A stretch of 64,000 bases of DNA from Mycobacteriales bacterium (GTDB taxonomy: Bacteria; Actinomycetota; Actinomycetes; BP-191): NCBI GenBank assembly GCA_046590575.1, contig JBKJUS010000169.1, forward strand, positions 818 to 64,817, read 5' to 3'. The notes under the pieces were generated by a model. It was not told the DNA's origin, did not search any database, and saw only the letters and a program-made list of their open reading frames with translations. Both the position numbers and the translations under genes were made by a program. Each line of letters begins with the position of its first letter. Position 1 is the stretch's first letter. Shown here one piece after another: positions 5,510-53,080 of the stretch.

Positions 5510-6514
5510 GTGCGCGCCGTACGGATGTCGGCCGGCCTGCTCGTGGCCGCGACGCTCACGGCATGTAGCCCAGGGCCCCAGGACGCCGCGATGGGCGCGA
5601 AGAATGGGGACCGGCTGATCGTCGTGACCACGGTCTCGCCGCTGACCAACATCGCCCAGAACGTCGCCGGTGAGCTTGCGTCGATCACGGGTCTGGTGCC
5701 CGAGGGGGTCAACAGCCACGAGTTCGAGCCGCGCCCCAGTGACGCCCGAGTGCTGGCGGCGGCCGACTTGGTCTTCATCAATGGGCTCAATCTCGAGACT
5801 CCGACGAAGATGCTGGCGAAGGCCAATCTCCGCGACGGGAGCCGCCTGATCGAGATGGGCGCCCGGATCGTGACCCCCGCGGAATTCATCTACGACTTCT
5901 CCTTCCCCAAGGCAGCGGGGGATCCCAACCCGCATTTGTGGACGAATCCCCTCTTCGGCATTCGGTACGCCGAGATCTTCCGCGACGAGTTCTCGAAGGC
6001 GGCACCGGAGAATGCCGATGCCTTCGCGGCCAACGCGGCGGCGTACATCGAGAAGATCAAGGCTCTCGACGGAGCAGTGCGGGTGGCCAGCGCGACGGTG
6101 CCGAGCCGCAAGCTGCTGACCTATCACGACTCGTTCCCCTACTTCGCCCGTGAGTACGGCTGGACCGTGATCGGGGCGATCCAGCCCTCAGACTTCGCCG
6201 AGCCGAGTGCCCGCGAGGTCGCCGACCTGATTGCTCAGGTCAAGGCGGCTAAGGTCCCGGCGATCTTCGGCTCGGAGGTCTTTCCGAGCTCGGTCCTGGA
6301 GCAGATCGGCAAGGAAGCCGGCGTCCGCTACGTCGACGACCTGCGCGACGACGATCTGCCCGGCAAGCCAGGCGAGCCGGCCCACTCCTACGTCGGTCTC
6401 CTGCGCTTCGACTTCGTGACGATGGTGAAGTCCCTCGGCGGGGACCCTTCGGCACTCCAGGGACTCGACGTCGCCAATGTGCAGACCGGTGATGTGGAGT
6501 ACCGCGAACAATGA
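5510..6514 (+). CDS. metal (Zn/Mn) ABC transporter substrate-binding lipoprotein, TroA/ZnuA cluster A-I
   Basis: GGAGG RBS plus GTG start, lipobox LTAC, and TroA-like helical-backbone SBP sequence. ATGA overlap with the next gene. Confidence 0.8.
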
Positions 6515-7286
6515 CCGTGCCTCTGGTCCACCTCGACGGCGTCACCCACTCGTACGCCGGTCCGCCGGTGCTGGAAGGGGTGTCGTTGCGGGTCGCGCCG
6601 GGGGAGTTCCTCGGCATCGTGGGTCCGAGCGGGTCCGGCAAGAGCACGCTGCTCCGGGTGCTCGCCGGGTCGCTGACCCCGCTCGTCGGGACAGTCACCC
6701 GCTCGGGTCCGTCCAGGATCGGCTATGTGCCCCAGGTGAGACGGTCAACTGGGACTTCCCGGTGACGGTGTCCGAGGTCGTCACGATGAGCCGTACGTCG
6801 GGCCGGTGGCTGCCCTGGTCGTCCAGGGCGGAGCAAACCGAGGTCGCGACGCTGCTCGATCGGCTCGGCCTCAGCGGACTGGGCAAGCGGCACATCCGTG
6901 AGCTCTCCGGCGGTCAGCAGCAGCGGGTGTTCATCGCCCGTGCGCTGCTGCGGCAGGCCAGCCTCCTGTTGCTCGACGAGCCGACCAGCGGCGTCGACGT
7001 ACGCACCCGCCACGACGTGCTTCACCTCCTCGACGACCTGCACGCCGGTGGGCTGGCCATCGTGCTGACGACCCACGACCTCAATGGCATTGCCGCCCAC
7101 CTGCCGCGCCTGGTGTGCCTCAACCGCGAAGTCATCGCCGACGGTGTCCCTCGCGCAGTCATCACTCCGGACGTCCTCGAGCGCACCTACGGCGCGCGCA
7201 TGGAGGTCATCGAGCACGCGGGCATGCCGGTTGTCTTCGAAGGAGGTTCGCACCACGGCGCGGACGTGGAGCGGGTGAGCAGATGA
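6511..7286 (+). pseudogene. metal ABC transporter ATP-binding protein (ZnuC/MntB-like), apparent -1 frameshift near 6736-6740
   Basis: Walker A (GPSGSGKST) is in frame 1 up to a stop at 6763-6765. The ABC signature LSGGQQQR and Walker B LLLLDEPTSGVD continue in frame 3. The junction reads ...IGYVPQV|ETVNWDF... at caggtgagacgg, so one G is missing relative to the expected gtggagacg. Confidence 0.7.
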
Positions 7287-13102: not shown

Positions 13103-13908
13103 CCGTGCGCGCGGCGCGCGACGACCTCGGATTGGCGGTCGCGGTGCCACGTGAGGTGCACCGAATCGTGTCGATCGTGCCGTCGCTCACCGAGACCGTC
13201 GCCTCCAGCGGTGGGGCACATCGGCTGGTCGGGGTCACCGACTGGTGCACCCACCCGCCGGGCGTGGTGGCCGGGCTGCAGCGGGTAGGTGGAACCAAGA
13301 ACCCGGACATCGCGGCGATCATCGGTCTCGCGCCCGATCTCGTGATCGCCAACGAGGAGGAGAACCGACCGGCTGACCTCGCGGCGATGCGCGCCGCCGG
13401 TCTTGCGGTCTGGGTGACCGCCCCGGAGACCGTGTCCGCGGCCGTGACCTCCCTAGGGCGGTTGCTCGCCGTGTGCGGACTCGGCGACGGCGGGCGGTCC
13501 TGGTACCGCGACGTCGTGCAGGCCTGGCCGGTTGTGGCCGCGCCCGCCGTACGCGGTCGCGCTGTTGCCTTCATCTGGCGCCGTCCGTGGATGGTGCTGG
13601 GCCGCAGCACCTTCGCCGGCGACGTGCTGCGCCAGCTTGGGGTCGACAACGCCTACGCCGGCCACGCGGACCGGTACCCAGCCGTCGAGCTCGATGACGT
13701 ACGCCGGCTCGGCGTCGACCTGGTCGTGTTGCCGGACGAGCCCTATGCCTTCTCCACCTCCGACGGACCGGAGGCCTTCGCCGGTTGGAACGTGCCCGTG
13801 GCGCTCGTGTCGGGCCGGCATCTCACGTGGTACGGCCCGTCCCTCGCCGACGCTCGGGACGTGCTGACCGCGCAGCTCGCGGCCGCGGTCGTCCCGGCCT
13901 TCCCTTAG
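13099..13908 (+). CDS. periplasmic binding protein, BtuF/FhuD-like (cobalamin or iron-chelate SBP)
   Basis: Class III SBP features (helical-backbone receptor). Translationally coupled to the upstream reductase gene. Confidence 0.6.
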   Translation: MTVRAARDDLGLAVAVPREVHRIVSIVPSLTETVASSGGAHRLVGVTDWCTHPPGVVAGLQRVGGTKNPDIAAIIGLAPDLVIANEEENRPADLAAMRAAGLAVWVTAPETVSAAVTSLGRLLAVCGLGDGGRSWYRDVVQAWPVVAAPAVRGRAVAFIWRRPWMVLGRSTFAGDVLRQLGVDNAYAGHADRYPAVELDDVRRLGVDLVVLPDEPYAFSTSDGPEAFAGWNVPVALVSGRHLTWYGPSLADARDVLTAQLAAAVVPAFP

Positions 13909-15179
13909 CAGTCGCGAGCGTCCTCGGCGCCGTTGCAGTCGTCGTTGCCCAGCCCGCCATCGACGTAATCGGCGCCGGCGCCGGCACTGATGTAGTCGTC
14001 GCCTGCCCCGGCCGAAATCCGGTCGTCTCCGGCGCCAGTGCGCAGCTCGTCCTTGCCGCCGAGGCTGCGCAGGCGATTGTCACCGTCTCCAGCGCTGACG
14101 TAGTTGTCACCGTCGCCGGCCTCGATGACATCGTCGCCGCTACCGGTACGGATCTCGTCTTTGCCGCTGCGGGCCGTCACCCGGTTGTCACCGTCGCCCG
14201 CGCTGACGTAGTTGTCACCGTCGCCGGACTGGATGATGTCGTCGCCGCTACCGGTACGGATCTCGTCCTTGCCTTCGCGAGTCGTGATGATGTTCTTTCC
14301 GTCGCCGGCGCTGACGTAGTTAGCGCCGCTGCCCGCGTCGATGGTGTCGTCGCCGCTGCCGGTCCGGATCTCGTCGTTTCCCTCGCGAGCGACTACCCGG
14401 TTCTTTCCGTCGCCGGCGCTGACGTAGTTGCTGCCCGCTCCGGTATCGACGATGTCATTGCCGCTGCCAGCGCGGATCTCGTCATTACCCTCGCGCGCCA
14501 GCACCCGGTTGCTGCCGTCGCCGGCGCTGACGTAGTTGTTGCCGACGCCGGTGTCGATGACGTCGTTGCCCGCGTCGCCGTAGATCGAGTCGTCGCCGCT
14601 CTCTCCGAGCATGCGGTCGTCGCCGTCGCCGCCCCGGATGTTGTCACCGTCACTCCCGCCGAGGAGGAGGTCGGCGCCCTCCTCACCGTGCAGGTCGTCG
14701 GCGCCGTCGCCGCCGAGCAGCTTGTCGTTGCCTTCGCCCCCGTAGAGCCCGCCCTCGTCACCGCCGATTCTTATCGGGTTGCTGCCGATGCCGATCGTGA
14801 TCGTGCCGCCGGTGGCCTCGTCGTCCCCGCCTTCACCGGCGAGCACGTCGTTGCCCTCACCGCCGCGCAATAGGTCCCGTCCGTCACCGCCGCAGATCAG
14901 GTCGTCTCCACCGAGGCCGTCGACAATGTCGTCGCCGTCGAGCGCGAGGATCACGTCGATTCCATTGGTGCCCTCGATCGTGTCGGTGTCCTCCGTGCCG
15001 ATGATCGTCGCCTTCTTGCCGAGGCAGGTCGGCGACGCGGCGAGGCTTGCCGAGGCCAGCAGCACGGGCGTGACCAGCAGGCCTGCAGCGGCCAGCCGAA
15101 GGCCGCGGGAGTAGGAAACAATGGGCACGACTGTCCTCCGGGGCTGGGCTGTCCGGACGTATCGCCGGCGGGTAAGCAA
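13905..15179 (-). CDS. secreted calcium-binding repeat protein (RTX/hemolysin-type GGxGxD-like repeats)
   Basis: Signal peptide, then a Gly/Asp-rich region. This is followed by about 4.5 tandem 32-aa repeats (NYVSAGDG.N....REG.DEIRTGSGDD.I..G.G.). Confidence 0.65.
   Translation of the reverse strand: MLTRRRYVRTAQPRRTVVPIVSYSRGLRLAAAGLLVTPVLLASASLAASPTCLGKKATIIGTEDTDTIEGTNGIDVILALDGDDIVDGLGGDDLICGGDGRDLLRGGEGNDVLAGEGGDDEATGGTITIGIGSNPIRIGGDEGGLYGGEGNDKLLGGDGADDLHGEEGADLLLGGSDGDNIRGGDGDDRMLGESGDDSIYGDAGNDVIDTGVGNNYVSAGDGSNRVLAREGNDEIRAGSGNDIVDTGAGSNYVSAGDGKNRVVAREGNDEIRTGSGDDTIDAGSGANYVSAGDGKNIITTREGKDEIRTGSGDDIIQSGDGDNYVSAGDGDNRVTARSGKDEIRTGSGDDVIEAGDGDNYVSAGDGDNRLRSLGGKDELRTGAGDDRISAGAGDDYISAGAGADYVDGGLGNDDCNGAEDARDC
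14010..14540 (-). repeat. about 96-nt tandem repeats, roughly 4.5 copies, inside the RTX-like gene
   Basis: Repeated nucleotide blocks such as gtcgccgctaccggtacggatctcgtc recur at about 96-nt spacing. Confidence 0.6.
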
Positions 15180-15232: not shown

Positions 15233-15450
15233 TCAGCGGTATCCGTGCTCGGGGCCGGGGTAGGTGCCGTCGCGAACCTCGGCAGCGAAGGTCTGGACCG
15301 CCTCGGTCAGGACCGTGCGCACATCGGCGTACCGCTTGAGGAATTTCGGGCCGGCCAGCGTTCGCCGCGTGCCTTGGCGGCCTGCAGGTCGGTGACGGTG
15401 ACCCGCCGGTCCGTCGGACCGCCGTACAGGGTCGGGATGGTGTCAGCCAT
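15233..15450 (-). pseudogene. panB: panB (3-methyl-2-oxobutanoate hydroxymethyltransferase) remnant with internal deletion of about 0.6 kb and a frame change
   Basis: GAGGA RBS plus ATG at 15450. This encodes MADTIPTLYGGPTDRRVTVTDLQAAKARGERWP, matching the PanB N-terminus up to the conserved K/RWAMLTAYD block. The sequence then jumps, with a +2 frame offset, into PKFLKRYADVRTVLTEAVQTFAAEVRDGTYPGPEHGYR*. This matches the PanB C-terminus including the E. coli -EVESGVYPGEEHSF- tail. The junction sits at the palindromic ggccggcc (about 15348-15356). Confidence 0.6.
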
Positions 15451-15551
15451 GGTCGCTGTCCTCGAGCTCATCGAGGCCCCGAACTGGGGTCCCCGTGCGC
15501 TGAACATCGTCGCATGGGAATCCGCCGGGCGGCAGAGCGCGAACGTCTGAC

Positions 15552-15992
15552 GTGGCGCCCACTCGGTTGGTGAGGACTGTGCTCGTCGTGTCGGCTGTGG
15601 TTGTCGTCGCGGGTTGCGGGTCCGGCGTCAGCCCCGCGGATCGGCTCACCTCCGCACCGCGGCTGCCGGCAGTCAGCGAAGAGGGGATTGCTGCCATCCG
15701 TGACCCAGCGGAGCCTGAGGTCATTCTGCCCGCAGTATGGGAGGTTGCCCCAGGCCAGGGCCGCGGTCGTCAGGTCGAGGTCCGCTGGGCGACCTCGAAG
15801 TGCGCGTTGTTCCGCCGCGCAGACGTGATCGAGTCGGCCGAAACGGTCACCATCACCGTGCAGGAGCAGCTGGTCGGCGACGGCATGTGTCCCGGCTACC
15901 GGGTGGCCAGTCACACGGTCACGCTCGCCGCGCCGCTGGGCACCCGGACCCTGCTGGACGGTTCGGTCTCGCCGGGGCGCATCGTCGCCTAG
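15552..15992 (+). CDS. lipoprotein, hypothetical
   Basis: Signal peptide plus lipobox (VVVVAGCGSG). 146 aa. Confidence 0.5.
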   Translation: MAPTRLVRTVLVVSAVVVVAGCGSGVSPADRLTSAPRLPAVSEEGIAAIRDPAEPEVILPAVWEVAPGQGRGRQVEVRWATSKCALFRRADVIESAETVTITVQEQLVGDGMCPGYRVASHTVTLAAPLGTRTLLDGSVSPGRIVA

Positions 15993-15993
15993 C

Positions 15994-17619
15994 TCAGGTG
16001 TGACGGTAGCGGTTGGTGATCGGCAGTCGCCGGTCCCGACCGAAGGACTTCGACGACAGCTTTGGACCTGGCGGGTTCTGTCGTCGCTTGAACTCCGCGA
16101 GGTCGACGAGCCGGATCACCCGGTCGACTGTCCCGGCGTCGAAGCCGGCGGCGACGATGTCGTCGCGGTCGCAGTCGCTCTCCACATAGGCCTCGAGGAT
16201 CGCATCGAGAACGTCGTACGGCGGCAGCCGGTCCAGGTCCAGCTGGCCTGGTGCTAGCTCTGCTGAGGGTGGCTTGGTGATCGAACTCTCCGGGATCGGC
16301 GGTTCCGAGCCACGCTCGACCGCCTGCGCGTTGCGCCAGCGCGCGAGCGCCCACACCAGCGACTTCGGTACGTCCTTGATGACCGCCCAGCCGCCGGCCG
16401 AGTCGCCGTAGAGAGTCGAGAAGCCGGTCGCCAGCTCACTCTTGTTGCCTGTGGTCAGCACGAGGTGGCCGTGTTGGTTGGACAGTGCCATCAGCAGGGT
16501 GCCGCGGACTCGGGCCTGGAGGTTCTCCGCAGCCAGGCCGGTGAGTTCGCCGAGGCCGTCGCTGCCGTCCAGCAGGCCGTGGTAGGCGAGAACCACCGGC
16601 TCGATCGGCACCACGGAGTGGTGCAGACCCTGCCGTGCCGCGAGGTCGGCGGCGTCGTCGAGGGAGTGCTGCGACGAGTGCACCGAGGGCATCGCGATGG
16701 TGTGGACCGCATCACCCCCGAGTGCGTCGGCGGCGATCGTCGCGGTGAGAGCCGAGTCGATGCCCCCGGAGAGGCCGAGTACGACTGACGTGAACGCGTT
16801 CTTGCGCACGTAGTCGCGGGTGCCAGTGACGAGCGCACCCCAGATCTCAGCGCAGTCGGGTAGTCGGGGGGCGGGCGCCTGCGCCCCTCCGCTGAAGTCG
16901 TGCACGAGCAGGTGCTCGACGAACTGTGGGGCTCGGGCAAGCAGCTCGCCGTCCGCACCCACCACCATGGAGTCGCCGTCGAAGACCAGCTCGTCCTGCC
17001 CGCCGACCATGTTGCAGTAGGCGATCGGTGCACCGGCCTCCGCTGCGCGGCGGCGTACCAATGCCAGTCGTGTGTCGTCCTTGCTCCGCTCATAGGGCGA
17101 GCCGTTGATGCACACGACGAGGTCGGCGCCGTTCTCACGCGCTGCCGCGAACGGTCCGCCCTGCTGCCAGAGGTCCTCGCAGATCGTCAGCGCGACTCGG
17201 TGACCGCGGAAGGGGACGACGGTGAAGTCGGTGCCCCGGGTGAAGTAGCGCGCCTCGTCGAAGACGCCGTAGTTCGGCAGGTGATGCTTGAAGTAACGCG
17301 CCCGGACTTTGCCTTCGTGGAGAAACGCAGCGGCATTGCGCAAGCCGTGCTCGTCACGATCGAGGTAACCCACGACGACCGCGGTCTCGCCGGTTTCGCA
17401 GGCCAGCGCGTCGAGCGCCTCGAGGTTGTCCTCGACTACGGCGCGGCGGTACACGAGGTCCTCTATCGGATAGCCCGTGAGGACCATCTCAGGAAGGACC
17501 ACGAGATCGGCGTTGGCCGCAGCCGCTTCCGCCACCCAGACCCGGGCGAGCGCGGCGTTGCCGACGATGTCGCCCACCGTCGGGTTGACCTGGGCGAGTG
17601 CGACGCGCAGCGGAACCAC
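15994..17619 (-). CDS. nadE: glutamine-dependent NAD+ synthetase
   Basis: N-terminal CN-hydrolase domain fused to the NAD synthetase domain, with the SGGxDS PP-loop (LGLSGGIDSALT). Confidence 0.85.
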   Translation of the reverse strand: MVPLRVALAQVNPTVGDIVGNAALARVWVAEAAAANADLVVLPEMVLTGYPIEDLVYRRAVVEDNLEALDALACETGETAVVVGYLDRDEHGLRNAAAFLHEGKVRARYFKHHLPNYGVFDEARYFTRGTDFTVVPFRGHRVALTICEDLWQQGGPFAAARENGADLVVCINGSPYERSKDDTRLALVRRRAAEAGAPIAYCNMVGGQDELVFDGDSMVVGADGELLARAPQFVEHLLVHDFSGGAQAPAPRLPDCAEIWGALVTGTRDYVRKNAFTSVVLGLSGGIDSALTATIAADALGGDAVHTIAMPSVHSSQHSLDDAADLAARQGLHHSVVPIEPVVLAYHGLLDGSDGLGELTGLAAENLQARVRGTLLMALSNQHGHLVLTTGNKSELATGFSTLYGDSAGGWAVIKDVPKSLVWALARWRNAQAVERGSEPPIPESSITKPPSAELAPGQLDLDRLPPYDVLDAILEAYVESDCDRDDIVAAGFDAGTVDRVIRLVDLAEFKRRQNPPGPKLSSKSFGRDRRLPITNRYRHT

Positions 17620-19714: not shown

Positions 19715-21040
19715 ATGGGTAAGCAGCAGGAGTTCGTGCTCCGGACGATCGAAGAACGCGACATCCGGTTCGTCCGGCTGTGGTTCACCGACGTACTCGG
19801 CTTCCTCAAGTCGGTGGCCATCGCCCCGGCCGAGCTCGAGGGGGCCTTTGCCGAGGGCATCGGCTTCGACGGCAGCGCGATCCAGGGCTTCGCTCGGGTG
19901 CACGAGAGCGACATGCTGGCTCGGCCGGACCCGTCGACGTTCCAGATCCTGGCCACCCGCGGAGACGGTCCCGGCGTCGCTCGGATGTTCTGCGACATCG
20001 TGATGCCGGACGGCACACCGAGTGAGGCCGACCCGCGGTGGGTGCTGCGCCGCGCGCTCAACAAGGCGGCGGACAAGGGATTCACCTTCTATACCCACCC
20101 GGAGATCGAGTTCTTCCTCTTCAAGGACTCGACGGCGCCGGTGCCCGTTGACCACGCCGGCTACTTCGACCTCACACCGCACGAGGCCGGACACGACTTC
20201 CGTCGGCAGGCGATCACGATGCTGGAACGCATGGGCATCTCGGTGGAGTTCAGCCACCACGAGGTCGCGCCGGGCCAACATGAGATCGACCTGCGATACG
20301 CCGACGCGCTGACGACCGCTGACAACATCATGACGTTCCGTCTCATCATCAAGGAGGTGGCGTTGACTGCCGGCGTCTATGCCTCCTTCATGCCGAAGCC
20401 GATCAGCGAGCATCCCGGTTCGGGCATGCACACCCACCTGAGCCTTTTCGAAGGTGACCGCAACGCCTTCCACGACCCGAGTGACCCCTACTATCTGTCG
20501 AAGATCGGCAAGGCGTTCATCGCCGGTCTCCTGCGCCACGCTTCGGAGATCACCGCGGTCTGCAACCAGTGGGTCAACTCCTACAAGCGGCTCATCGCCG
20601 GCGGCGAGGCGCCCGTCCACGTGACGTGGGGTCACAACAACCGCTCCGCACTGGTCCGCGTGCCGATGTACAAGCCGCAGAAGGGCAACTCCACGCGCGT
20701 CGAGTTCCGGTCACCGGACTCCGCAGCCAACCCCTACCTGGCCTTCGCCCTGATTCTCGCGGCCGGGATGAAGGGCATCGAGGAGGGCTACGAGCTGCCG
20801 CCAGGGGCCGAGGACGACATCTGGGCCCTGTCCGACACCGAGCGTCGGGCGATGGGCTATGAGCGGCTGCCCACCTCGCTGTCCGACGCGATCCGCGTGA
20901 TGGAGAGCTCCGAGCTCGTCGCAGAGACCCTCGGAGAGCACGTCTTTGATTACTTCCTGCGCAACAAGAAGGCGGAGTGGGAGGAATACCGCCGCCAGGT
21001 CACCCCCTTCGAGCTCGACCGCTACCTTCCGCTCCTCTGA
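19715..21040 (+). CDS. glnA2: glutamine synthetase, GlnA2-type
   Basis: The N-terminus (EFVLRTIEERDIRFVRLWFTDVLGFLKSVAIAPAELEGAF) is near-identical to mycobacterial GlnA2. GS catalytic motifs are present throughout. Confidence 0.9.
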   Translation: MGKQQEFVLRTIEERDIRFVRLWFTDVLGFLKSVAIAPAELEGAFAEGIGFDGSAIQGFARVHESDMLARPDPSTFQILATRGDGPGVARMFCDIVMPDGTPSEADPRWVLRRALNKAADKGFTFYTHPEIEFFLFKDSTAPVPVDHAGYFDLTPHEAGHDFRRQAITMLERMGISVEFSHHEVAPGQHEIDLRYADALTTADNIMTFRLIIKEVALTAGVYASFMPKPISEHPGSGMHTHLSLFEGDRNAFHDPSDPYYLSKIGKAFIAGLLRHASEITAVCNQWVNSYKRLIAGGEAPVHVTWGHNNRSALVRVPMYKPQKGNSTRVEFRSPDSAANPYLAFALILAAGMKGIEEGYELPPGAEDDIWALSDTERRAMGYERLPTSLSDAIRVMESSELVAETLGEHVFDYFLRNKKAEWEEYRRQVTPFELDRYLPLL

Positions 21041-21307
21041 GTCCCGGCGAACCTGGAGCAGCGGGCTCTTTCGAATCCTCGTGACCTTGTGCAACGATGA
21101 TCGCTCGATCCGAGCCTGGCCGAGGACCCAGTACTTCCTGGCGGTCGCGAAGCTGGCGCGAACCCCCTGCAGCACTTCAGGCTCTCCAGTGAGGTGCGCC
21201 CAGGTCCATGGGTCGGTCGGCCGTGCTCCGCGGGCACCTTTTGCACGTCCAGCTTCCCCGCTGCAACCCGCACTAACCCGTCAAGTCCAGCAGAACCAGG
21301 GAGAACG

Positions 21308-23566
21308 ATGGCCAAGGCCGCCAACAGCAGCGCTACCTCGTCGCCGGAGCCGTCATCCGGCGCGAGGCTGCAGAATTTCAGCCGCTCTGCCCGCGCCTAC
21401 CTGAGGGAGCGCAAGCGGCAACGGGCCATCAAGCGCCGGACGTCGAACTCCCGCCTAGCCATCTTCCTGGTGATCACACTGCTCGGTCTTTTCGCGACCG
21501 TTTTCCTCGCGCTGCGCTTCCTCGGCGCAGACGCGGACGGGCGTCAGCTCACTCTGGGTGAGGTTCGGCTGCTGGCCGATCAGGGCCGGATCGAGACCGC
21601 GACGTTGCTGGATGAGGACGACCTCTTTGTCGGCCGCTTCGTGTCGCAGGACGACGCCGACGAGCGCAACGCGCCCATTCCCGTGGCGAGCGCCTCTGCG
21701 GCCCCGGTGGCGTCGGCCACGCCGGCGCCGGCCGCGAGCGCGAAGCCGGTCGTCTCGGCGTCTCCTGCCGCCAAGCCTGCACCGTTGCCGCTGACCAACC
21801 AGGTCCCCGTCGACTCGCCGGTGCGGAACGACGCCGCTGCGGGCGACTACTACGTCAACGTCTCGGGCAGCGGCTCGCTGACCCAGGGCTTGGAGCAGGC
21901 CTTGCGCGGCAGCACCACCGAGGTGGCCGTCGACGAGCAGGGCACCAAGCAGAACGTGCGCCTGCTCACGACGTTCTTGCTGCCACTGATGATCCTCGCC
22001 AACCTTTTCGCGATGCTCTTCACCCTCGGCAAGGGTGGCAGCTCGGCAATTGGCGATGTCATCAACTTCGGCTCGATTGGCAAGGGCAAGGCCAAGAAGG
22101 GGGCGAGCTACGTCACTTTCGAGGACGTCGGTGGCGCCGACGAGGCAGTCACTGAGCTGCGTGAGGTGCGGGACTACCTCACCGATCCGGCGAAGTACGA
22201 GGCACTCGGCGCTGCTCCGCCGAAGGGCGTGCTGCTCTTCGGTCCACCCGGCACCGGCAAGACCCTGCTCGCCAAGGCGGTGGCCGGCGAGGCCGGTGTG
22301 CCGTTCTTCTCCGTCGCAGGTGCGCAGTTCGTCGAGGCCCTCGTCGGCGTCGGCGCAGCTCGGGTACGCGACCTCTTCGAGCGGGTCCACGCGGCGGCAC
22401 CGGCGATCGTCTTCATCGACGAGCTCGACGCGGCCGGGCGTAAGCGCGGCACCGGTGGTGGTGGCGGCGGCTCGGACGAGCGCGAGCAGACGCTGAACCA
22501 GCTACTGGTGGAGATGGACGGGTTCGAGGTGTCCTCGGGCATCGTGGTGATCGGCGCGACCAACCGGCCCGACATCCTCGACCCCGCGCTGATGCGCCCC
22601 GGTCGCTTCGACCGGCACATCACCATCGAGCGGCCGGAGCAGGAGGGCCGGGAGCGGATCCTGCGGATCCACGCCAAGGGCAAGCCGATCGCGCCCTCGG
22701 TGGATTTCGCCTTCCTGGCTGAGCGCACCCCGGGCTTCACTGGCGCGGACCTGGCCAACGTGGTGAATGAGGCCGCGCTGCTCGCTATCCGCCAGGGCAA
22801 GGCGCTGGTCGAGCCGGCGGAGCTCGAGGAGGCGATCCAGCGGGTGCTCACGGGGCCCAAGCGCCGCGGCCGGCTGATGAGCAGCGACGAGCGTCAGCGC
22901 GCCGCGATCCACGAGAGCGGGCATGTGGTGGTCGCTGCGGCTGCTGGGCGGGTCGCCGACGTCGAGCGCGTGTCGATCCTGAGCCGGGGGAAGCAGCTCG
23001 CCACGACGACGTTGCAGTCCGACGCCGACGTCAGCTTGCTGTCCCAGACTGCGCTGCGCGGTCAGCTGGTCACCCTCCTCGGCGGCATCGCCGCGGAAAA
23101 CCTGATCTTCGGGGAGATGTCAACCGGCGGCGAGCAGGACCTGGAGCAAGCCACCGACCTGGCCCGGGACATGGTGGCCCGCTACGGGATGAGCCCGATC
23201 CTGGGCCCCGTCCGTCTCCTCGGAAAGGCCAGTGAGGCGTTCCTCGGCAACGACATCCCGCTATCCGATGTCTCCCCGGAGACCCGGGCCACGCTGGACG
23301 CGGAGATCCGCCGGTTCATCGCCGAAGCCCAGGACGAGGCCATGGAGCTGCTGTCGCGGCACCGCGCCACCCTCGACGGCCTGGCTGCCCGACTCGAGGA
23401 GGAGGAGACCCTCGAGGGCGAAGAGCTCCAGGAGGTGCTCGCCCCGATCGAGCGGGAGATGTCCCGGGAGAAGATCAGCCCCAACGGCCGCGCCGTCCGC
23501 CGTGCGCCGGCCACCCGCCGTACGCCGGCCACCCGGCGGGCACCCGTCAAGTCTGCTCGCCGATAA
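21308..23566 (+). CDS. FtsH-family membrane AAA+ zinc metalloprotease paralog
   Basis: AGGGAG RBS. TM1, a long low-complexity periplasmic loop, then TM2. Walker A GPPGTGKT, second region of homology (SRH) and HEXXH as HESGH. M41 peptidase-like C-terminus. Confidence 0.75.
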
Positions 23567-26440: not shown

Positions 26441-29400
26441 GTGGCGAGCGAAGGCACAGGTGCCGACGCACGGCTGACCCGACTCGGCTTCACCGACCCA
26501 CGTGCCGCGCGGGCGCTGCTCGGCCCGGATGGCCTCCGCCTGTGGGGCAGCGACGGGGCGGTCGACGCCGGAGCCGCAGCGATCCTCGCCGCGCTGGCGC
26601 ACGTCGCCAACCCTGACCTCGCACTCGGCGCGCTTGGCCGGCTGGTCACGGTCGTCCCGAAGCCGGCGGTTCTGCTGGCCGCTCTGCGGTCCTCCGCCGG
26701 CCTACGTGAACGTCTGCTGGGAGTGCTCGGCACCTCGACCGTGCTCGGTGACCACCTCGTGCGGCACCCGCGGAGCTGGCCGACGCTCGCGGACAACCGC
26801 ATCGCCGCCTCACGGCCCAGCGCTCTCGGTCTGCGCGAGCAGCTGCTCGCTGCCGTCGGCGCCGACGTCACTGCTCCGCTGCCGTGGGGGAGTGGTGCGG
26901 GGAGTCGGGCGTCCGGGGCCGGCGATGACGTGCTCGACGAGCTGCGCACGGCGTACCGGTCGGCGCTGCTGCGGCTAGCGGCGCGCGATGTCGCCGGCGG
27001 CATCGCTATCGACGACGTCGCCGCCGAGCTGGCCGACCTGGCCGCCGCAACGCTGGAGGCTGCGCTCGCTGTCGCTGTGGCCGCGATCGAGCCGGACGTC
27101 GAGCCGTGCCGGATCGCCGTCATCGGCATGGGCAAATGCGGTGGGCGCGAGCTCAACTACGTCAGCGATGTGGATGTCGTCTTCGTCGCGGAGGCGCTGC
27201 CGGGCGGAGACGAGGCGCGCGCCCTGCGCACGGCTACCAGGCTGGCGGAGGGCCTGATCAAGGCATGTTCGGCGACCACTCGCGAAGGCTCCATCTGGCC
27301 GGTCGACGCCGGGCTGCGTCCCGAGGGCCGATCGGGCCCGCTGGTCCGGACCCTGGCCAGCCACGCGGCGTACTACGAGCGCTGGGCGAAGAACTGGGAG
27401 TTCCAGGCGCTGCTCAAGGCGCGTCCGGTGGCCGGCGACCTCGCCCTCGGTCAGGACTACCTCCGGGTGATCGCGCCGATGGTGTGGTCGCAGGCGCCGC
27501 GACCGGATCTGGTCGCCGACGTCCAGGCGATGAAGAAGCGGGTGGAAGGCTCGGTCGCGCCGAAGGAGTCGGGGCGCCAGCTCAAGCTCGCGCCCGGAGG
27601 TCTGCGCGACGTGGAGTTCAGCGTGCAGCTCCTCCAGCTCGTCCACGGCCGGGCCGACGAGACACTGCGCGTGCGCAGCACCCTCGAAGGGCTCGAGCGG
27701 CTGGCCAAGGGTGGCTACGTCGCGATCGAGGATGCCGAGCGGCTGGCTGACGCTTACCGATTCCTCCGCGGGGTCGAGCACCGGCTGCAGCTCCAACGCC
27801 TCCGGCGTACCCACACCCTGCCGACCGAGCCGGCGGCCTTGCGGTGGGTGGCTCGCAGCATGGGGTTCCGTGACGGGGCGCGCGGCACGGCGACGGAGGG
27901 GCTGCTTGCCGAGCGCGCCCGGCACGCGGTCGAGGTGCGGCGCCTGCACGAGAAGCTCTTCTACCGCCCCCTGCTGACCGCGGTGGCGCGGCTGCCGGCC
28001 GATGCCATCCGGTTGGCGCCCGAGGCGGCCCGCGAGCGACTGGATGCTCTTGGCTTCGCTGACTCGGCAGGTGCGCTGCGTCACCTCGAGGCGATGACCG
28101 GCGGCCTGTCCCGGAGGGCCTCGGTCCTGCGAACCATGCTGCCGGTGATGCTCCCTTGGTTCGCGGCGGCGCACGACCCGGACAGCGGGTTGCTCGCCTT
28201 CCGCACGGTCAGCGAGCAGCTAGGCAGCTCGCCGTGGTTCATCGCTCTCTTGCGGGACTCAGAAGTAGTGGCCGAGCGGCTGGCCAGTCTGCTCTCGTCC
28301 AGCAAGTTCGTGGCAGACCTGCTTGGCCGTGCCCCGGAGGCGGTAGCCATCGTCGCGCGCGACGCCGAGTTGGCACCGCGGACGGCAGCCGCACTGCACG
28401 AGGAATTCGGGTCGGTGGTGGCCCGCCACCACGACGCGGAGGCGGCCGCAGCTGCGGTGCGCGGTCTACGGCGTCACGAGCTCCTGCGAGTCGCGTGCGC
28501 TGACCTGCTGGGAATGGTCGATGTCGACGGGGTCGGTCCAGCCCTGTCCGACGTGTCGGATGCGACCCTCGCTGCGACCCTCGACGTGGCCCAGCGCCAC
28601 GTCACGGCGGTCCGCGGCGCGCCGCTCGACGTACGTCTTGTTGTTGTCGGCATGGGTCGTCTGGGCGGGCGCGAGCAAGGCTACGGCTCGGACGCAGACG
28701 TGCTCTTCGTGCATGAGCCCATGGACGGTGCCGACGAGGCAGCTGCCGCGGCCACGGCGAAGAACATCGCCGAGGAGCTGAGGCGGCTGCTCTCGGTGCC
28801 ATCCCCCGATCCACCGCTCCTCGTCGACGCGGGTCTCCGTCCGGAAGGTCGACAGGGTGCGCTCACTTTGAGCCTGTCCGGCTATGCCCGCTACTACGCA
28901 GGTCGAGCCGCCGTATGGGAGGCACAGGCGCTTCTGCGCGCTCGGGTGGTCGCCGGTGACGCCGACCTGGGTAACCGCTTTTGCGAGCTCATCGAGCCGG
29001 TGCGCTGGCCCGAGTCGTTCAGTGACGAGAGCGTGACGGAGATCCGGCGAATCAAGGCCCGAGTGGAGACCGAGCGGCTGTCGCGCGGCGTCGACCGCCA
29101 CCGTCACACGAAGCTAGGTCCCGGAGCGATCGCAGACGTGGAATGGACCGTGCAGCTGCTGCAGCTGCGCTACGCGCACTCAACGCCGACCTTGCGTACC
29201 GCTTCCACGCTCGACGCTCTGGCCGCTGCTGCTGCGGCGGGGTTGATCCCGCCGGATGACGCAGACCTGCTCTGCACGGCGTGGCAAGCGGCGACCGCGG
29301 CGCGAAACGGGCTGACGTTGGTCCGTGGCCGCGCACACGACGTGCTGCCGGATGACGCGCGCACTCTGGCCGGGGTGGCGCGGGCAGTCGGCTACCCTGC

Positions 29401-29485
29401 CGGGAGCCGAGCGGACTTCCTCGACGGCTACCGGCGCGCGACTCGGCGCGCTCGCGCAGTGGTGGAGAGGGTGTTTTACGCGTGA
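26441..29485 (+). CDS. glnE: bifunctional glutamine synthetase adenylyltransferase/adenylyl-removing enzyme
   Basis: Two nucleotidyltransferase domains with GlnE-specific motifs. 1014 aa. Confidence 0.9.
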   Translation: MASEGTGADARLTRLGFTDPRAARALLGPDGLRLWGSDGAVDAGAAAILAALAHVANPDLALGALGRLVTVVPKPAVLLAALRSSAGLRERLLGVLGTSTVLGDHLVRHPRSWPTLADNRIAASRPSALGLREQLLAAVGADVTAPLPWGSGAGSRASGAGDDVLDELRTAYRSALLRLAARDVAGGIAIDDVAAELADLAAATLEAALAVAVAAIEPDVEPCRIAVIGMGKCGGRELNYVSDVDVVFVAEALPGGDEARALRTATRLAEGLIKACSATTREGSIWPVDAGLRPEGRSGPLVRTLASHAAYYERWAKNWEFQALLKARPVAGDLALGQDYLRVIAPMVWSQAPRPDLVADVQAMKKRVEGSVAPKESGRQLKLAPGGLRDVEFSVQLLQLVHGRADETLRVRSTLEGLERLAKGGYVAIEDAERLADAYRFLRGVEHRLQLQRLRRTHTLPTEPAALRWVARSMGFRDGARGTATEGLLAERARHAVEVRRLHEKLFYRPLLTAVARLPADAIRLAPEAARERLDALGFADSAGALRHLEAMTGGLSRRASVLRTMLPVMLPWFAAAHDPDSGLLAFRTVSEQLGSSPWFIALLRDSEVVAERLASLLSSSKFVADLLGRAPEAVAIVARDAELAPRTAAALHEEFGSVVARHHDAEAAAAAVRGLRRHELLRVACADLLGMVDVDGVGPALSDVSDATLAATLDVAQRHVTAVRGAPLDVRLVVVGMGRLGGREQGYGSDADVLFVHEPMDGADEAAAAATAKNIAEELRRLLSVPSPDPPLLVDAGLRPEGRQGALTLSLSGYARYYAGRAAVWEAQALLRARVVAGDADLGNRFCELIEPVRWPESFSDESVTEIRRIKARVETERLSRGVDRHRHTKLGPGAIADVEWTVQLLQLRYAHSTPTLRTASTLDALAAAAAAGLIPPDDADLLCTAWQAATAARNGLTLVRGRAHDVLPDDARTLAGVARAVGYPAGSRADFLDGYRRATRRARAVVERVFYA

Positions 29486-30390
29486 CGAGCCAGAGCTGGC
29501 CGAGCGGGCGGCCGTCGATAGCCGGAGCCGACTCACGGTTCGTAGCCGTGAAGGGGGTGCGCTTCCACGTCCACGGTGCGCGGCCCTCACGCAAGCGGCG
29601 TACGACGCCGGTGCTGCTTCTGCATGGCGTGCCGGAGACGGCCGCTTGCTGGCGCGACCTCATGCCGGAGCTGGCCAAGGACCGCGTGGTCATCGCGCCC
29701 GACCTGAAGGGGCTGGGCCTGTCGGAGGCACGCGGACCCTACGACCTCGCGACGGTAGCCGCCGAGCTGGCCGCTCTGGTTCTGCACGAGGTGGACGGCC
29801 CCGTCGATGTCGTCGGGCACGACTGGGGCGGGTCGATCGCGCTGGCCCTCGCGGGTGCCCGACCGGAACTGGTCCGTCGCGTCGTCGACATCTCCGGGCC
29901 GTACCGCAAGGTCAACCTGCTGCGGGCATTTCACATCCCCCTGTTGTCATTGCCGGCGTTGCCCGAGCTCGCGTTTCGGGCCGGCGGGCGTCGTCTCGTG
30001 CGGGCGATGTTCGACTACGGGTGGAAGGCTGATCCGCGACTGCCTGAAGAGGTGCTCACCCACTACGTCGACAGCTACGCCGACCCGGCGCGCGTGGAGG
30101 CGATGCTCAGCTACTTCCGGGCGACTACCCGGCCGCGTGTCGTCGCTGCCGTCCAGGGCCTGCTTGGGCAGGACGCAGGTCCGGCCGGGCCGCCGCGGGT
30201 GCGGGTCGAGCGGTCGCTTGTCGTATGGGGTGCTGCGGACCCCGCGCTGCCCCTCTCGGATGGCGAGAGCGTCGTCAACGACCTCGGCGCATCCTCGACC
30301 ATGCTCAGCCTGCCCGGGGTCGGCCACTGGCCGCTCGAGGAGGCCCGGGACGTCGTCGTACCCGCGGTCGCGGAGTTCCTCAGGTCGTGA
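29482..30390 (+). CDS. alpha/beta hydrolase fold protein
   Basis: HGxP motif (LLLHGVPE), nucleophile elbow GHDWGG and a C-terminal His. GTGA overlap with glnE. Confidence 0.7.
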   Translation: MTSQSWPSGRPSIAGADSRFVAVKGVRFHVHGARPSRKRRTTPVLLLHGVPETAACWRDLMPELAKDRVVIAPDLKGLGLSEARGPYDLATVAAELAALVLHEVDGPVDVVGHDWGGSIALALAGARPELVRRVVDISGPYRKVNLLRAFHIPLLSLPALPELAFRAGGRRLVRAMFDYGWKADPRLPEEVLTHYVDSYADPARVEAMLSYFRATTRPRVVAAVQGLLGQDAGPAGPPRVRVERSLVVWGAADPALPLSDGESVVNDLGASSTMLSLPGVGHWPLEEARDVVVPAVAEFLRS

Positions 30391-31751
30391 CGGGGGCACC
30401 ACGGGAACGCCCCGGGCGGTACGCCGATGCGCTCAAGGTCAGGGAGTTTCGCGCTCTCTATATCGCTCAGGTTGCTTCTGGCATCGGCGACCAGGTCGCC
30501 AAGGTGGCGCTCGCGGTCCTGGTCTACGACCGCACGTCCTCGCCCTTGCTTGCGGCGTTGGCCTACGCCGCGGGATTCCTTCCATGGATCGTCGCGGGTC
30601 CGGTGCTCAGTCCGCTTGCCGACCGGCTCCCGCGTCGCCGGGTCATGGTGGTCTGCGAGCTGGGTCGTGCCGCTCTCTTCGGCGCGATGGCGCTCCACGG
30701 CGTCCCGCTTCTCGTGCTCTTCGTGCTGCTCTTTCTGGCCAGCATCCTCGCGCCTCCGTTCGAAGCTGCCCGGGCGGCGACGTTGCCCGACGTGCTGACC
30801 GGTGACCTGTACGTCGTGGGCTCCTCGCTCGGTGCGATCTCCAGCCAGCTGGTGCAGGTGCTCGGGTTCGCGGGCGGCGGCGCACTCGTGGCAGCCGTCG
30901 GGGCGCGAGGCGCGCTCGGCCTCGACGCGGTGACATTCGCGGTGTCCGGCCTGTTGCTCCTCGTCCGTCTCGTGTCGAGGCCGCCCGCCGCGACCGGCGC
31001 CCGCCCGACCCTGGTAGCAGATGTCCGCGAAGGCTCGCGCGTCGTCTTCGCCAGCCCAGTGCTGCGCTCGATCCTGCTGCTGGCATGGGTGGGGGCGGCC
31101 TTCTCGATCGTGCCCGAGGGCTTGGCGGTGACGTACGCCGACTCCCGCAATGCCGGGCCGCTGGCGACTGGACTGCTCCTGGCCGCCAATCCGGTAGGCG
31201 CTGTCATCGGGGCTTTCGCCATAGGTCGGCTGGTCGCGCCATCCCGTCGGCTGCGGCTGATGCTTCCCTTGGCCGTGTTGACCTTCCTTCCGCTCATGGG
31301 CACGGTCGTGCACCCTCCGGTCGCCGTGGCCTGCCTGCTGTGGGCGATGAGCGGAGTCGGTCTGGCTTTCCAGCTCCCGGCCAACGCGACATTTGTCGCA
31401 GGCGTACCAGCCGCCTCGCGAGGTCGCGCCTTCGGGTTGGCGCAGTCTGGGCTGCAGGTCTTCCAGGGCCTGGCGCTTACGGTAGGTGGGGCACTCGCGC
31501 AAGTTCTGCCGGTGCAGCGCGTCGTCACGCTCGCCGGGCTCGTCGGCCTGTGCGGGGTGCTGCTGCTCGCCCGTTCCTGGCCGCATGCGGCGATGGAAGC
31601 GGTGCATGCGCCCGCGTCGAGCGTCGGCTGGCCGGACGAGGTGGTGGTCACCGACGACGACTCCACGACGAACCTGGAGATGCCCGTGTGGACCGGGCCG
31701 TACGTGCTGCGCCCGGCGGCGAGGGAGATGATCATCCGACTGGTTCCGTGA
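30387..31751 (+). CDS. MFS transporter
   Basis: 12-TM MFS with an EntS-like sequence. GTG start overlaps the hydrolase stop. Start uncertain. Confidence 0.6.
   Translation: MTGAPRERPGRYADALKVREFRALYIAQVASGIGDQVAKVALAVLVYDRTSSPLLAALAYAAGFLPWIVAGPVLSPLADRLPRRRVMVVCELGRAALFGAMALHGVPLLVLFVLLFLASILAPPFEAARAATLPDVLTGDLYVVGSSLGAISSQLVQVLGFAGGGALVAAVGARGALGLDAVTFAVSGLLLLVRLVSRPPAATGARPTLVADVREGSRVVFASPVLRSILLLAWVGAAFSIVPEGLAVTYADSRNAGPLATGLLLAANPVGAVIGAFAIGRLVAPSRRLRLMLPLAVLTFLPLMGTVVHPPVAVACLLWAMSGVGLAFQLPANATFVAGVPAASRGRAFGLAQSGLQVFQGLALTVGGALAQVLPVQRVVTLAGLVGLCGVLLLARSWPHAAMEAVHAPASSVGWPDEVVVTDDDSTTNLEMPVWTGPYVLRPAAREMIIRLVP

Positions 31752-51655: not shown

Positions 51656-53080
<1,425 letters not shown>

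Follow-up and report, generated by a model that had tools for sequence, protein, structure and literature searches.

The locus lies in a 64-kb stretch of DNA (hereafter the window; G+C content 69%), where the two ends of panB stand in different frames between nadE and a gene for an RTX-repeat protein. The features around panB and the annotated genes further along are as follows, in window positions.

13905–15179, minus strand: gene for an RTX calcium-binding repeat protein, with a likely start GVG at 15128 (Pfam HemolysinCabind, conserved synteny)
15233–15352, minus strand: panB C-terminal remnant, 39 codons for residues 240–278 and the original TGA stop
15307–15351, minus strand: out-of-frame tail of a 47-codon ORF, ARNSSSGTPMCARS, with its stop at 15307–15309 (translation)
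15351–15352, minus strand: deletion junction, 619 nt missing relative to panB of the relatives L002 and L003 (DNA alignment, breakpoint contexts in relatives)
15352–15450, minus strand: panB N-terminal remnant, codons 1–33 (88% identity to residues 1–33 of L002 PanB)
15459–15463, minus strand: Shine-Dalgarno-like GAGGA, 8 nt before the ATG (read from the sequence)
15994–17619, minus strand: nadE, glutamine-dependent NAD+ synthetase (Pfam NAD_synthase and CN_hydrolase; 80–85% identity to L001–L003)
19715–21040: glnA2 (Pfam)
21194–23566: FtsH-like protease (Pfam)
26441–29485: glnE (Pfam)
51656–53080: glnA1 (Pfam)

The 47-codon ORF runs on the minus strand from the ATG at 15450 to 15307, and its product consists of 33 residues, MADTIPTLYGGPTDRRVTVTDLQAAKARGERWP, followed by 14 residues out of frame, ARNSSSGTPMCARS. 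In the other frame, positions 15352 to 15236 of the minus strand translate into GPKFLKRYADVRTVLTEAVQTFAAEVRDGTYPGPEHGYR and are followed by TGA at 15235–15233; translation begun at the panB ATG does not yield this C-terminal remnant. We used the full-length PanB of the four closest relatives as tblastn queries against the window. Positions 15450–15352 matched their residues 1–33 (E 5e-15 to 7e-11, 74–88% identity), and positions 15352–15236 matched their residues 240–278 (E 1e-17 to 4e-13, 72–85% identity). The C-terminal piece also matches positions 227–258 of the 259 in the Pfam profile PF02548 (E 1.2e-6), and the PanB structures 1OY0, 3VAV, 3EZ4 and 1M3U align to it via their last 38 residues. 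The N-terminal piece is too short for Pfam, and its identity is settled by the PanB of the close relatives. Judged by similarity well beyond chance, both pieces are PanB termini. The exact translations and tblastn agree with the preliminary description of this DNA, which had read here an ORF with the first 33 PanB residues, then a frame offset and the PanB C-terminus, and the match of the relatives' PanB to both pieces bears out its assignment of the termini. The 47-residue N-terminal peptide that it called translatable corresponds to the ORF with GAGGA before its ATG. One detail has to be corrected: the N-terminal piece does not end before the conserved block, as had been stated, but keeps the W-P that opens W-P-M-L-T-S-Y-D.

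The relatives come from a NadE scan of species-representative genomes, which found L001, L002 and L003, all metagenome-assembled genomes (MAGs) of uncultured Mycobacteriales, and from a metagenome scan, which added L089. These four uncultured Mycobacteriales are the closest relatives, with NadE 80–85% identical; no same-species sequence was found by NadE in the genome and metagenome collections, where the best matches were 85% and 84% identical. All four carry an intact panB, encoding 278–283 residues, directly downstream of nadE, between nadE and the RTX-repeat gene or its equivalent, which is the slot of the stub. L001, L002 and L003 share the order znuA...F420 reductase, binding protein, RTX, panB, nadE, glnA2, ftsH-like, glnE; from znuA to glnE the order in the window is identical, panB alone being shortened, and the flanks on both sides of the stub are collinear with the relatives. 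Pfam annotation, which covered about 50 ORFs of the window, confirmed the neighbourhood of nadE, glnA2 and glnE in which the preliminary description had placed the gene, and panB adjoins nadE, its upstream neighbour here, in all close relatives. Across the panB-bearing loci that we compared, the gene is intact in all 23 others, L011 having one frame break.

Several side observations concern these loci. The frame break in L011 panB (19972–20780) falls at residue 217/218, and the ftsH-like gene of L002 also has frame breaks; both are probably long-read assembly indels and not biology. The RTX gene lies directly downstream of panB in the same orientation in the window and in L001–L003, and may be co-transcribed with it; it evolves fast (61–63% identity, against 80–98% for its neighbours). 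The nadE–panB spacer holds an ORF of 146 codons (15552–15992, plus strand) with a lipoprotein-type signal (…VVVAGCGSG…) and high GC3 but no Pfam match; this ORF is absent from L001 and L002, and L003 and L089 have a DsbA-like gene there. The spacer is a variable spot.

At the DNA level, the window differs from panB of L002 and L003 by one gap of 619 nt. Because the gap equals 206 codons plus 1 nt, it takes out residues 34–239 and also changes the reading frame. On the left, the break comes after TGG CCG, the Trp-Pro that opens the conserved block, and on the right it lies within the Gly codon of G-P-K-F. With the intact gene in the same slot of the relatives, the alignment supports the internal deletion and frameshift proposed earlier; the deletion stands, and the count of about 210 missing codons gives way to 206 codons plus 1 nt. 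Microhomology at the breakpoints amounts to 1–3 nt at most, depending on the ancestral wobble bases, and is uninformative at such base composition. Nor does the palindrome ggccggcc (GGCCGGCC) at the junction, which had been pointed out before, have any significance. The window contains it 10 times where 5.85 would be expected, a count reached by 9 of 100 shuffles, and we rejected it as a meaningful feature. The lesion would fit illegitimate recombination, replication slippage or end-joining.

What is left falls far short of an enzyme. A complete PF02548 domain spans about 260 residues in a single frame, and only residues 1–33 and 240–278 are found here, in two frames. The metal-binding and catalytic residues of PanB, which we take from the E. 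coli and M. tuberculosis structures to lie between about 40 and 200, belong to the interval 34–239, which is wholly absent. Since this interval holds the whole TIM-barrel core, the locus, as read, cannot encode a functional ketopantoate hydroxymethyltransferase, in line with the earlier prediction. Transcription of the stub probably continues, and its translation would then give a 47-residue peptide, 33 residues of PanB and 14 out of frame, that would lack enzymatic function. This product is on record at NCBI as a singleton protein from one 65,562-nt contig, so the stub has already been called as a protein-coding gene; the '47-aa protein' should carry a panB pseudogene label.

The remnants themselves are well preserved. 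Compared with L002, the N-terminal piece has 10 codons that differ synonymously only and 4 that differ nonsynonymously, and the C-terminal piece has 11 and 6, ratios similar to those between the intact relatives. Neither piece contains a further stop codon or indel, and upstream of the stub the promoter-like site, the leader hairpin (see below), the ribosome-binding site and the start codon are all intact. From the mostly synonymous differences and the intact leader we infer that most of the divergence predates the loss and accumulated under selection; together with the freedom of the remnants from lesions, this points to an evolutionarily recent deletion. An intact syntenic orthologue in each of the four relatives, and a 619-nt deletion with a frameshift in the window, are both as expected of a unitary pseudogene. 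We consider it very likely that this is a real one, produced by a single 619-nt deletion with no more than about 3 nt of microhomology, by which codons 34–239 were lost and the frame was shifted. It is an ordinary gene loss, a well-known kind of event, if a cleanly documented one.

Unless another panB exists in the genome, the cell would not make ketopantoate and would depend on pantothenate or pantoate taken in from outside; auxotrophy follows only if the genome has no other copy. The preliminary description had rightly offered both, auxotrophy or dependence on a second copy elsewhere. The deletion could thus be real and harmless, with a second panB elsewhere supplying the enzyme. The visible part of the genome is 64 kb, which leaves room for such a copy, and nothing speaks positively in its favour: beyond the two pieces, tblastn found nothing like PanB in the window, and the panB of the relatives at this locus is well conserved (88–90% identical among themselves), as one would expect if it is the only functional copy. 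In actinobacteria, panB is usually single-copy. We regard a rescuing second copy as unlikely. Genes for panC, panD and panE were likewise absent among the roughly 50 ORFs of the window annotated by Pfam.

The deletion allele might instead be an artefact of assembly or a minority variant, the organism really having a full-length panB and the contig representing a mis-join or a rare allele of a mixed population. The allele has been seen in one assembly and contig only, its product is a singleton protein cluster, and the close relatives are all metagenome-assembled genomes, as the source may be too. Against this, the intact panB of the relatives contains no direct repeat of at least 13 nt (the longest is 11–12 nt) and none at the breakpoints, which leaves no substrate for repeat collapse, a route we rejected as unlikely, and the collinear flanks indicate that the contig is not chimeric. 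We also compared with the window all of the approximately 24 kb that is covered by ORFs of the relatives, and besides panB found one frame-breaking lesion, which means that frame errors in the assembly are few; the two lesions are the only ones in this comparable sequence. The other lies in a znuC-like ABC ATPase gene (6379–7256, plus strand) between znuA and an ABC-3 permease gene, where 1 nt is deleted at 6737/6738 outside any homopolymer (CAGGT-GAGAC against CAGGTCGAGAC in L001, L002 and L003). It is either a second pseudogene, and so a sign of mild gene decay, or strain heterogeneity or a sequence error; because of it we leave the artefact or minority allele a small chance, and hold it to be improbable. 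The MFS transporter ORF at 30225–31751 is continuous.

Alignments of the regions upstream of panB revealed a block of invariant sequence some 20 nt ahead of the ATG, which belongs to the first of two leader features.

15469–15497, minus strand: pan-motif-like leader hairpin of 29 nt (covariation, minimum-free-energy fold, covariance model)
15506–15514, minus strand: putative extended -10 promoter element TGCGACGAT (TGn + NAnnnT)

The hairpin has two pairs at its base; next come a bulged A in the 3' strand (15471), a 5-bp stem CGGGG/CCUCG in which one G.U pair is invariant, and a bulged A in the 5' strand (15490). It ends in a 4-bp apical stem, in the window CCCC/GGGG closed by the loop AGUUC; the loop is variable among loci. 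The pattern [AG]GGGAC-N6-30-CCTYGAK occurs upstream of panB in 21 of the 24 panB-bearing actinobacterial loci examined, among them Mycobacteriales MAGs, Micromonospora, Lentzea and Nanopelagicales, and is missing from two Cellulomonas loci and L096. Examples include L001 6907–6940, L002 11758–11791, L005 11874–11906 and L009 10030–10063. The 11 pairs of the hairpin are paired in 98.9% of alignment cells, and six of them show compensatory changes (for example CCCC/GGGG, CUCC/GGAG, CCGC/GCGG and CGCC/GGCG in the apical stem; CA/UG against UC/GA at the base). None of 500 shuffles reached the covariation score, and all slid controls collapsed. The minimum-free-energy fold of the window sequence is the same hairpin (-24.9 kcal/mol). 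A covariance model made from it scored 33–48 bits at every panB leader, only upstream of panB, and at most 24.6 bits elsewhere in 0.88 Mb, where the two best matches lie inside coding sequence. The two sub-threshold matches, window 30311–30343 and L009 1373–1405, were rejected as chance, being in coding sequence and having no bulged A.

Eighteen of the hairpins end 12–40 nt before the panB start. The other three stand about 20 nt before an upstream ATG, 170–190 nt upstream of the conserved PanB N-terminus (L011 19774–19807, L013 20379–20412, L015 16991–17024), which suggests that PanB of these loci may have an N-terminal extension of about 60 residues. In the alignments, most relatives show the pattern TGC-NAnnAT some 10 nt ahead of the hairpin, and TGCGACGAT resembles an extended -10 element; if it acts as one, the mRNA would begin right at the hairpin. 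A consensus sigma-70 scan found nothing. As a general mechanism, masking of the ribosome-binding site by the CCUC strand was rejected: it fits the clade of the window (CCUCGA/UCGAGG) but not Micromonospora or Nanopelagicales.

That the stub is retained for a function, either because its promoter and pan-like leader drive the RTX-repeat gene or because the 47-residue peptide has a role, could draw on the intact leader, ribosome-binding site and start codon, on the short panB–RTX gap in the relatives (45–80 nt) and on a terminator scan of the window that found no terminator-like site between stub and RTX gene, yet a recent deletion explains the intactness equally well and a homology search found no homologues of the peptide other than PanB N-termini, so that we give this explanation little credence. 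The recent pseudogene remains our reading of the locus, and what its leader represents is best seen beside the known pan RNA motif.

The original description of the pan motif (RF01749) covers Chloroflexi, Firmicutes and delta-Proteobacteria, and the motif occurs mostly in tandem (Weinberg et al. 2010, PMC2864571). Its consensus secondary structure consists of 3 bp, a 3' A, 5 bp, a 5' A and an apical stem (RF01749, PMC2864571); some published members are single hairpins, and the original authors suggested that it is bound by a protein (PMC2864571). For actinobacteria there is only a tentative M. avium match (PMC4607514), and expression of the pan genes of M. tuberculosis was said in 2024 to respond 'by a yet-to-be determined mechanism' (PMC11626117). 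Like the pan motif, the hairpin of the window lies in the 5' leader directly upstream of panB and has two bulged A on opposite strands with a 5-bp stem between them; set against the published consensus, both A are invariant and the stems covary. The two also share a third pair that is a wobble, a GG preceding the bulged A of the 5' strand, a 3' strand that begins with CC, and an apical stem-loop that varies. There are also four differences. First, the element stands alone, the covariance model finding no second copy nearby, whereas the pan motif is usually a tandem pair. Second, its middle stem is CGGGG/CCUCG, in contrast to CYUGG/CCGGG of the pan motif, with two pairs flipped. Third, it is actinobacterial, and Actinobacteria are not listed in the original description (PMC2864571). 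Fourth, the Rfam 15 pan model gives it no match at the gathering threshold, and none either when slices of 901 nt and 96 nt are scanned at E<=10; Rfam matches to sR28, mir-596 and MIAT in the window and leader are noise.

We read the element as an actinobacterial variant of the pan motif that has one hairpin. The wider proposal, that it is the pan motif of actinobacteria and, for this phylum, the so far missing cis-regulator of pantothenate synthesis, standing here on a dead gene as a relic or in control of RTX, is a tentative one, which we think has somewhat less than an even chance of being right. The covariation-supported leader, overlooked by the Rfam model, offers a concrete element for pantothenate and CoA regulation in Mycobacteriales, and its retention is a more reusable result than the loss of panB itself.

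Compared with the intact PanB of L001, L002, L003 and L089, of M. tuberculosis (1OY0) and of E. coli (1M3U), the window has kept the first 33 and the last 39 residues, and it shares with the relatives the genomic slot beside nadE and the same leader. Unlike them, it is without residues 34–239, and so without the whole barrel and the metal-binding and catalytic residues, and its remnants stand in different frames.

In M. tuberculosis, PanB is essential without supplementation (PMC11626117). Many environmental bacteria have lost panB and panC naturally (PMC9666465): among leaf-associated bacteria, PanB and PanC are present in 10% of pantothenate auxotrophs and in 84% of prototrophs (ISME J 2022, PMC9666465), and Methylobacterium isolates are pantothenate auxotrophs lacking panB/panC according to work cited there (PMC9666465). 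The deletion described here predicts dependence on external pantothenate or pantoate, and such vitamin cross-feeding is common in soil and plant communities; a recent loss would be useful to know of in culturing the lineage, by supplementing B5, and in metabolic modelling. As in the leaf-associated auxotrophs, a free-living environmental bacterium has lost an early pantothenate gene and would rely on its neighbours for B5; unlike them, the window shows a fresh deletion scar with both ends of the gene still present.
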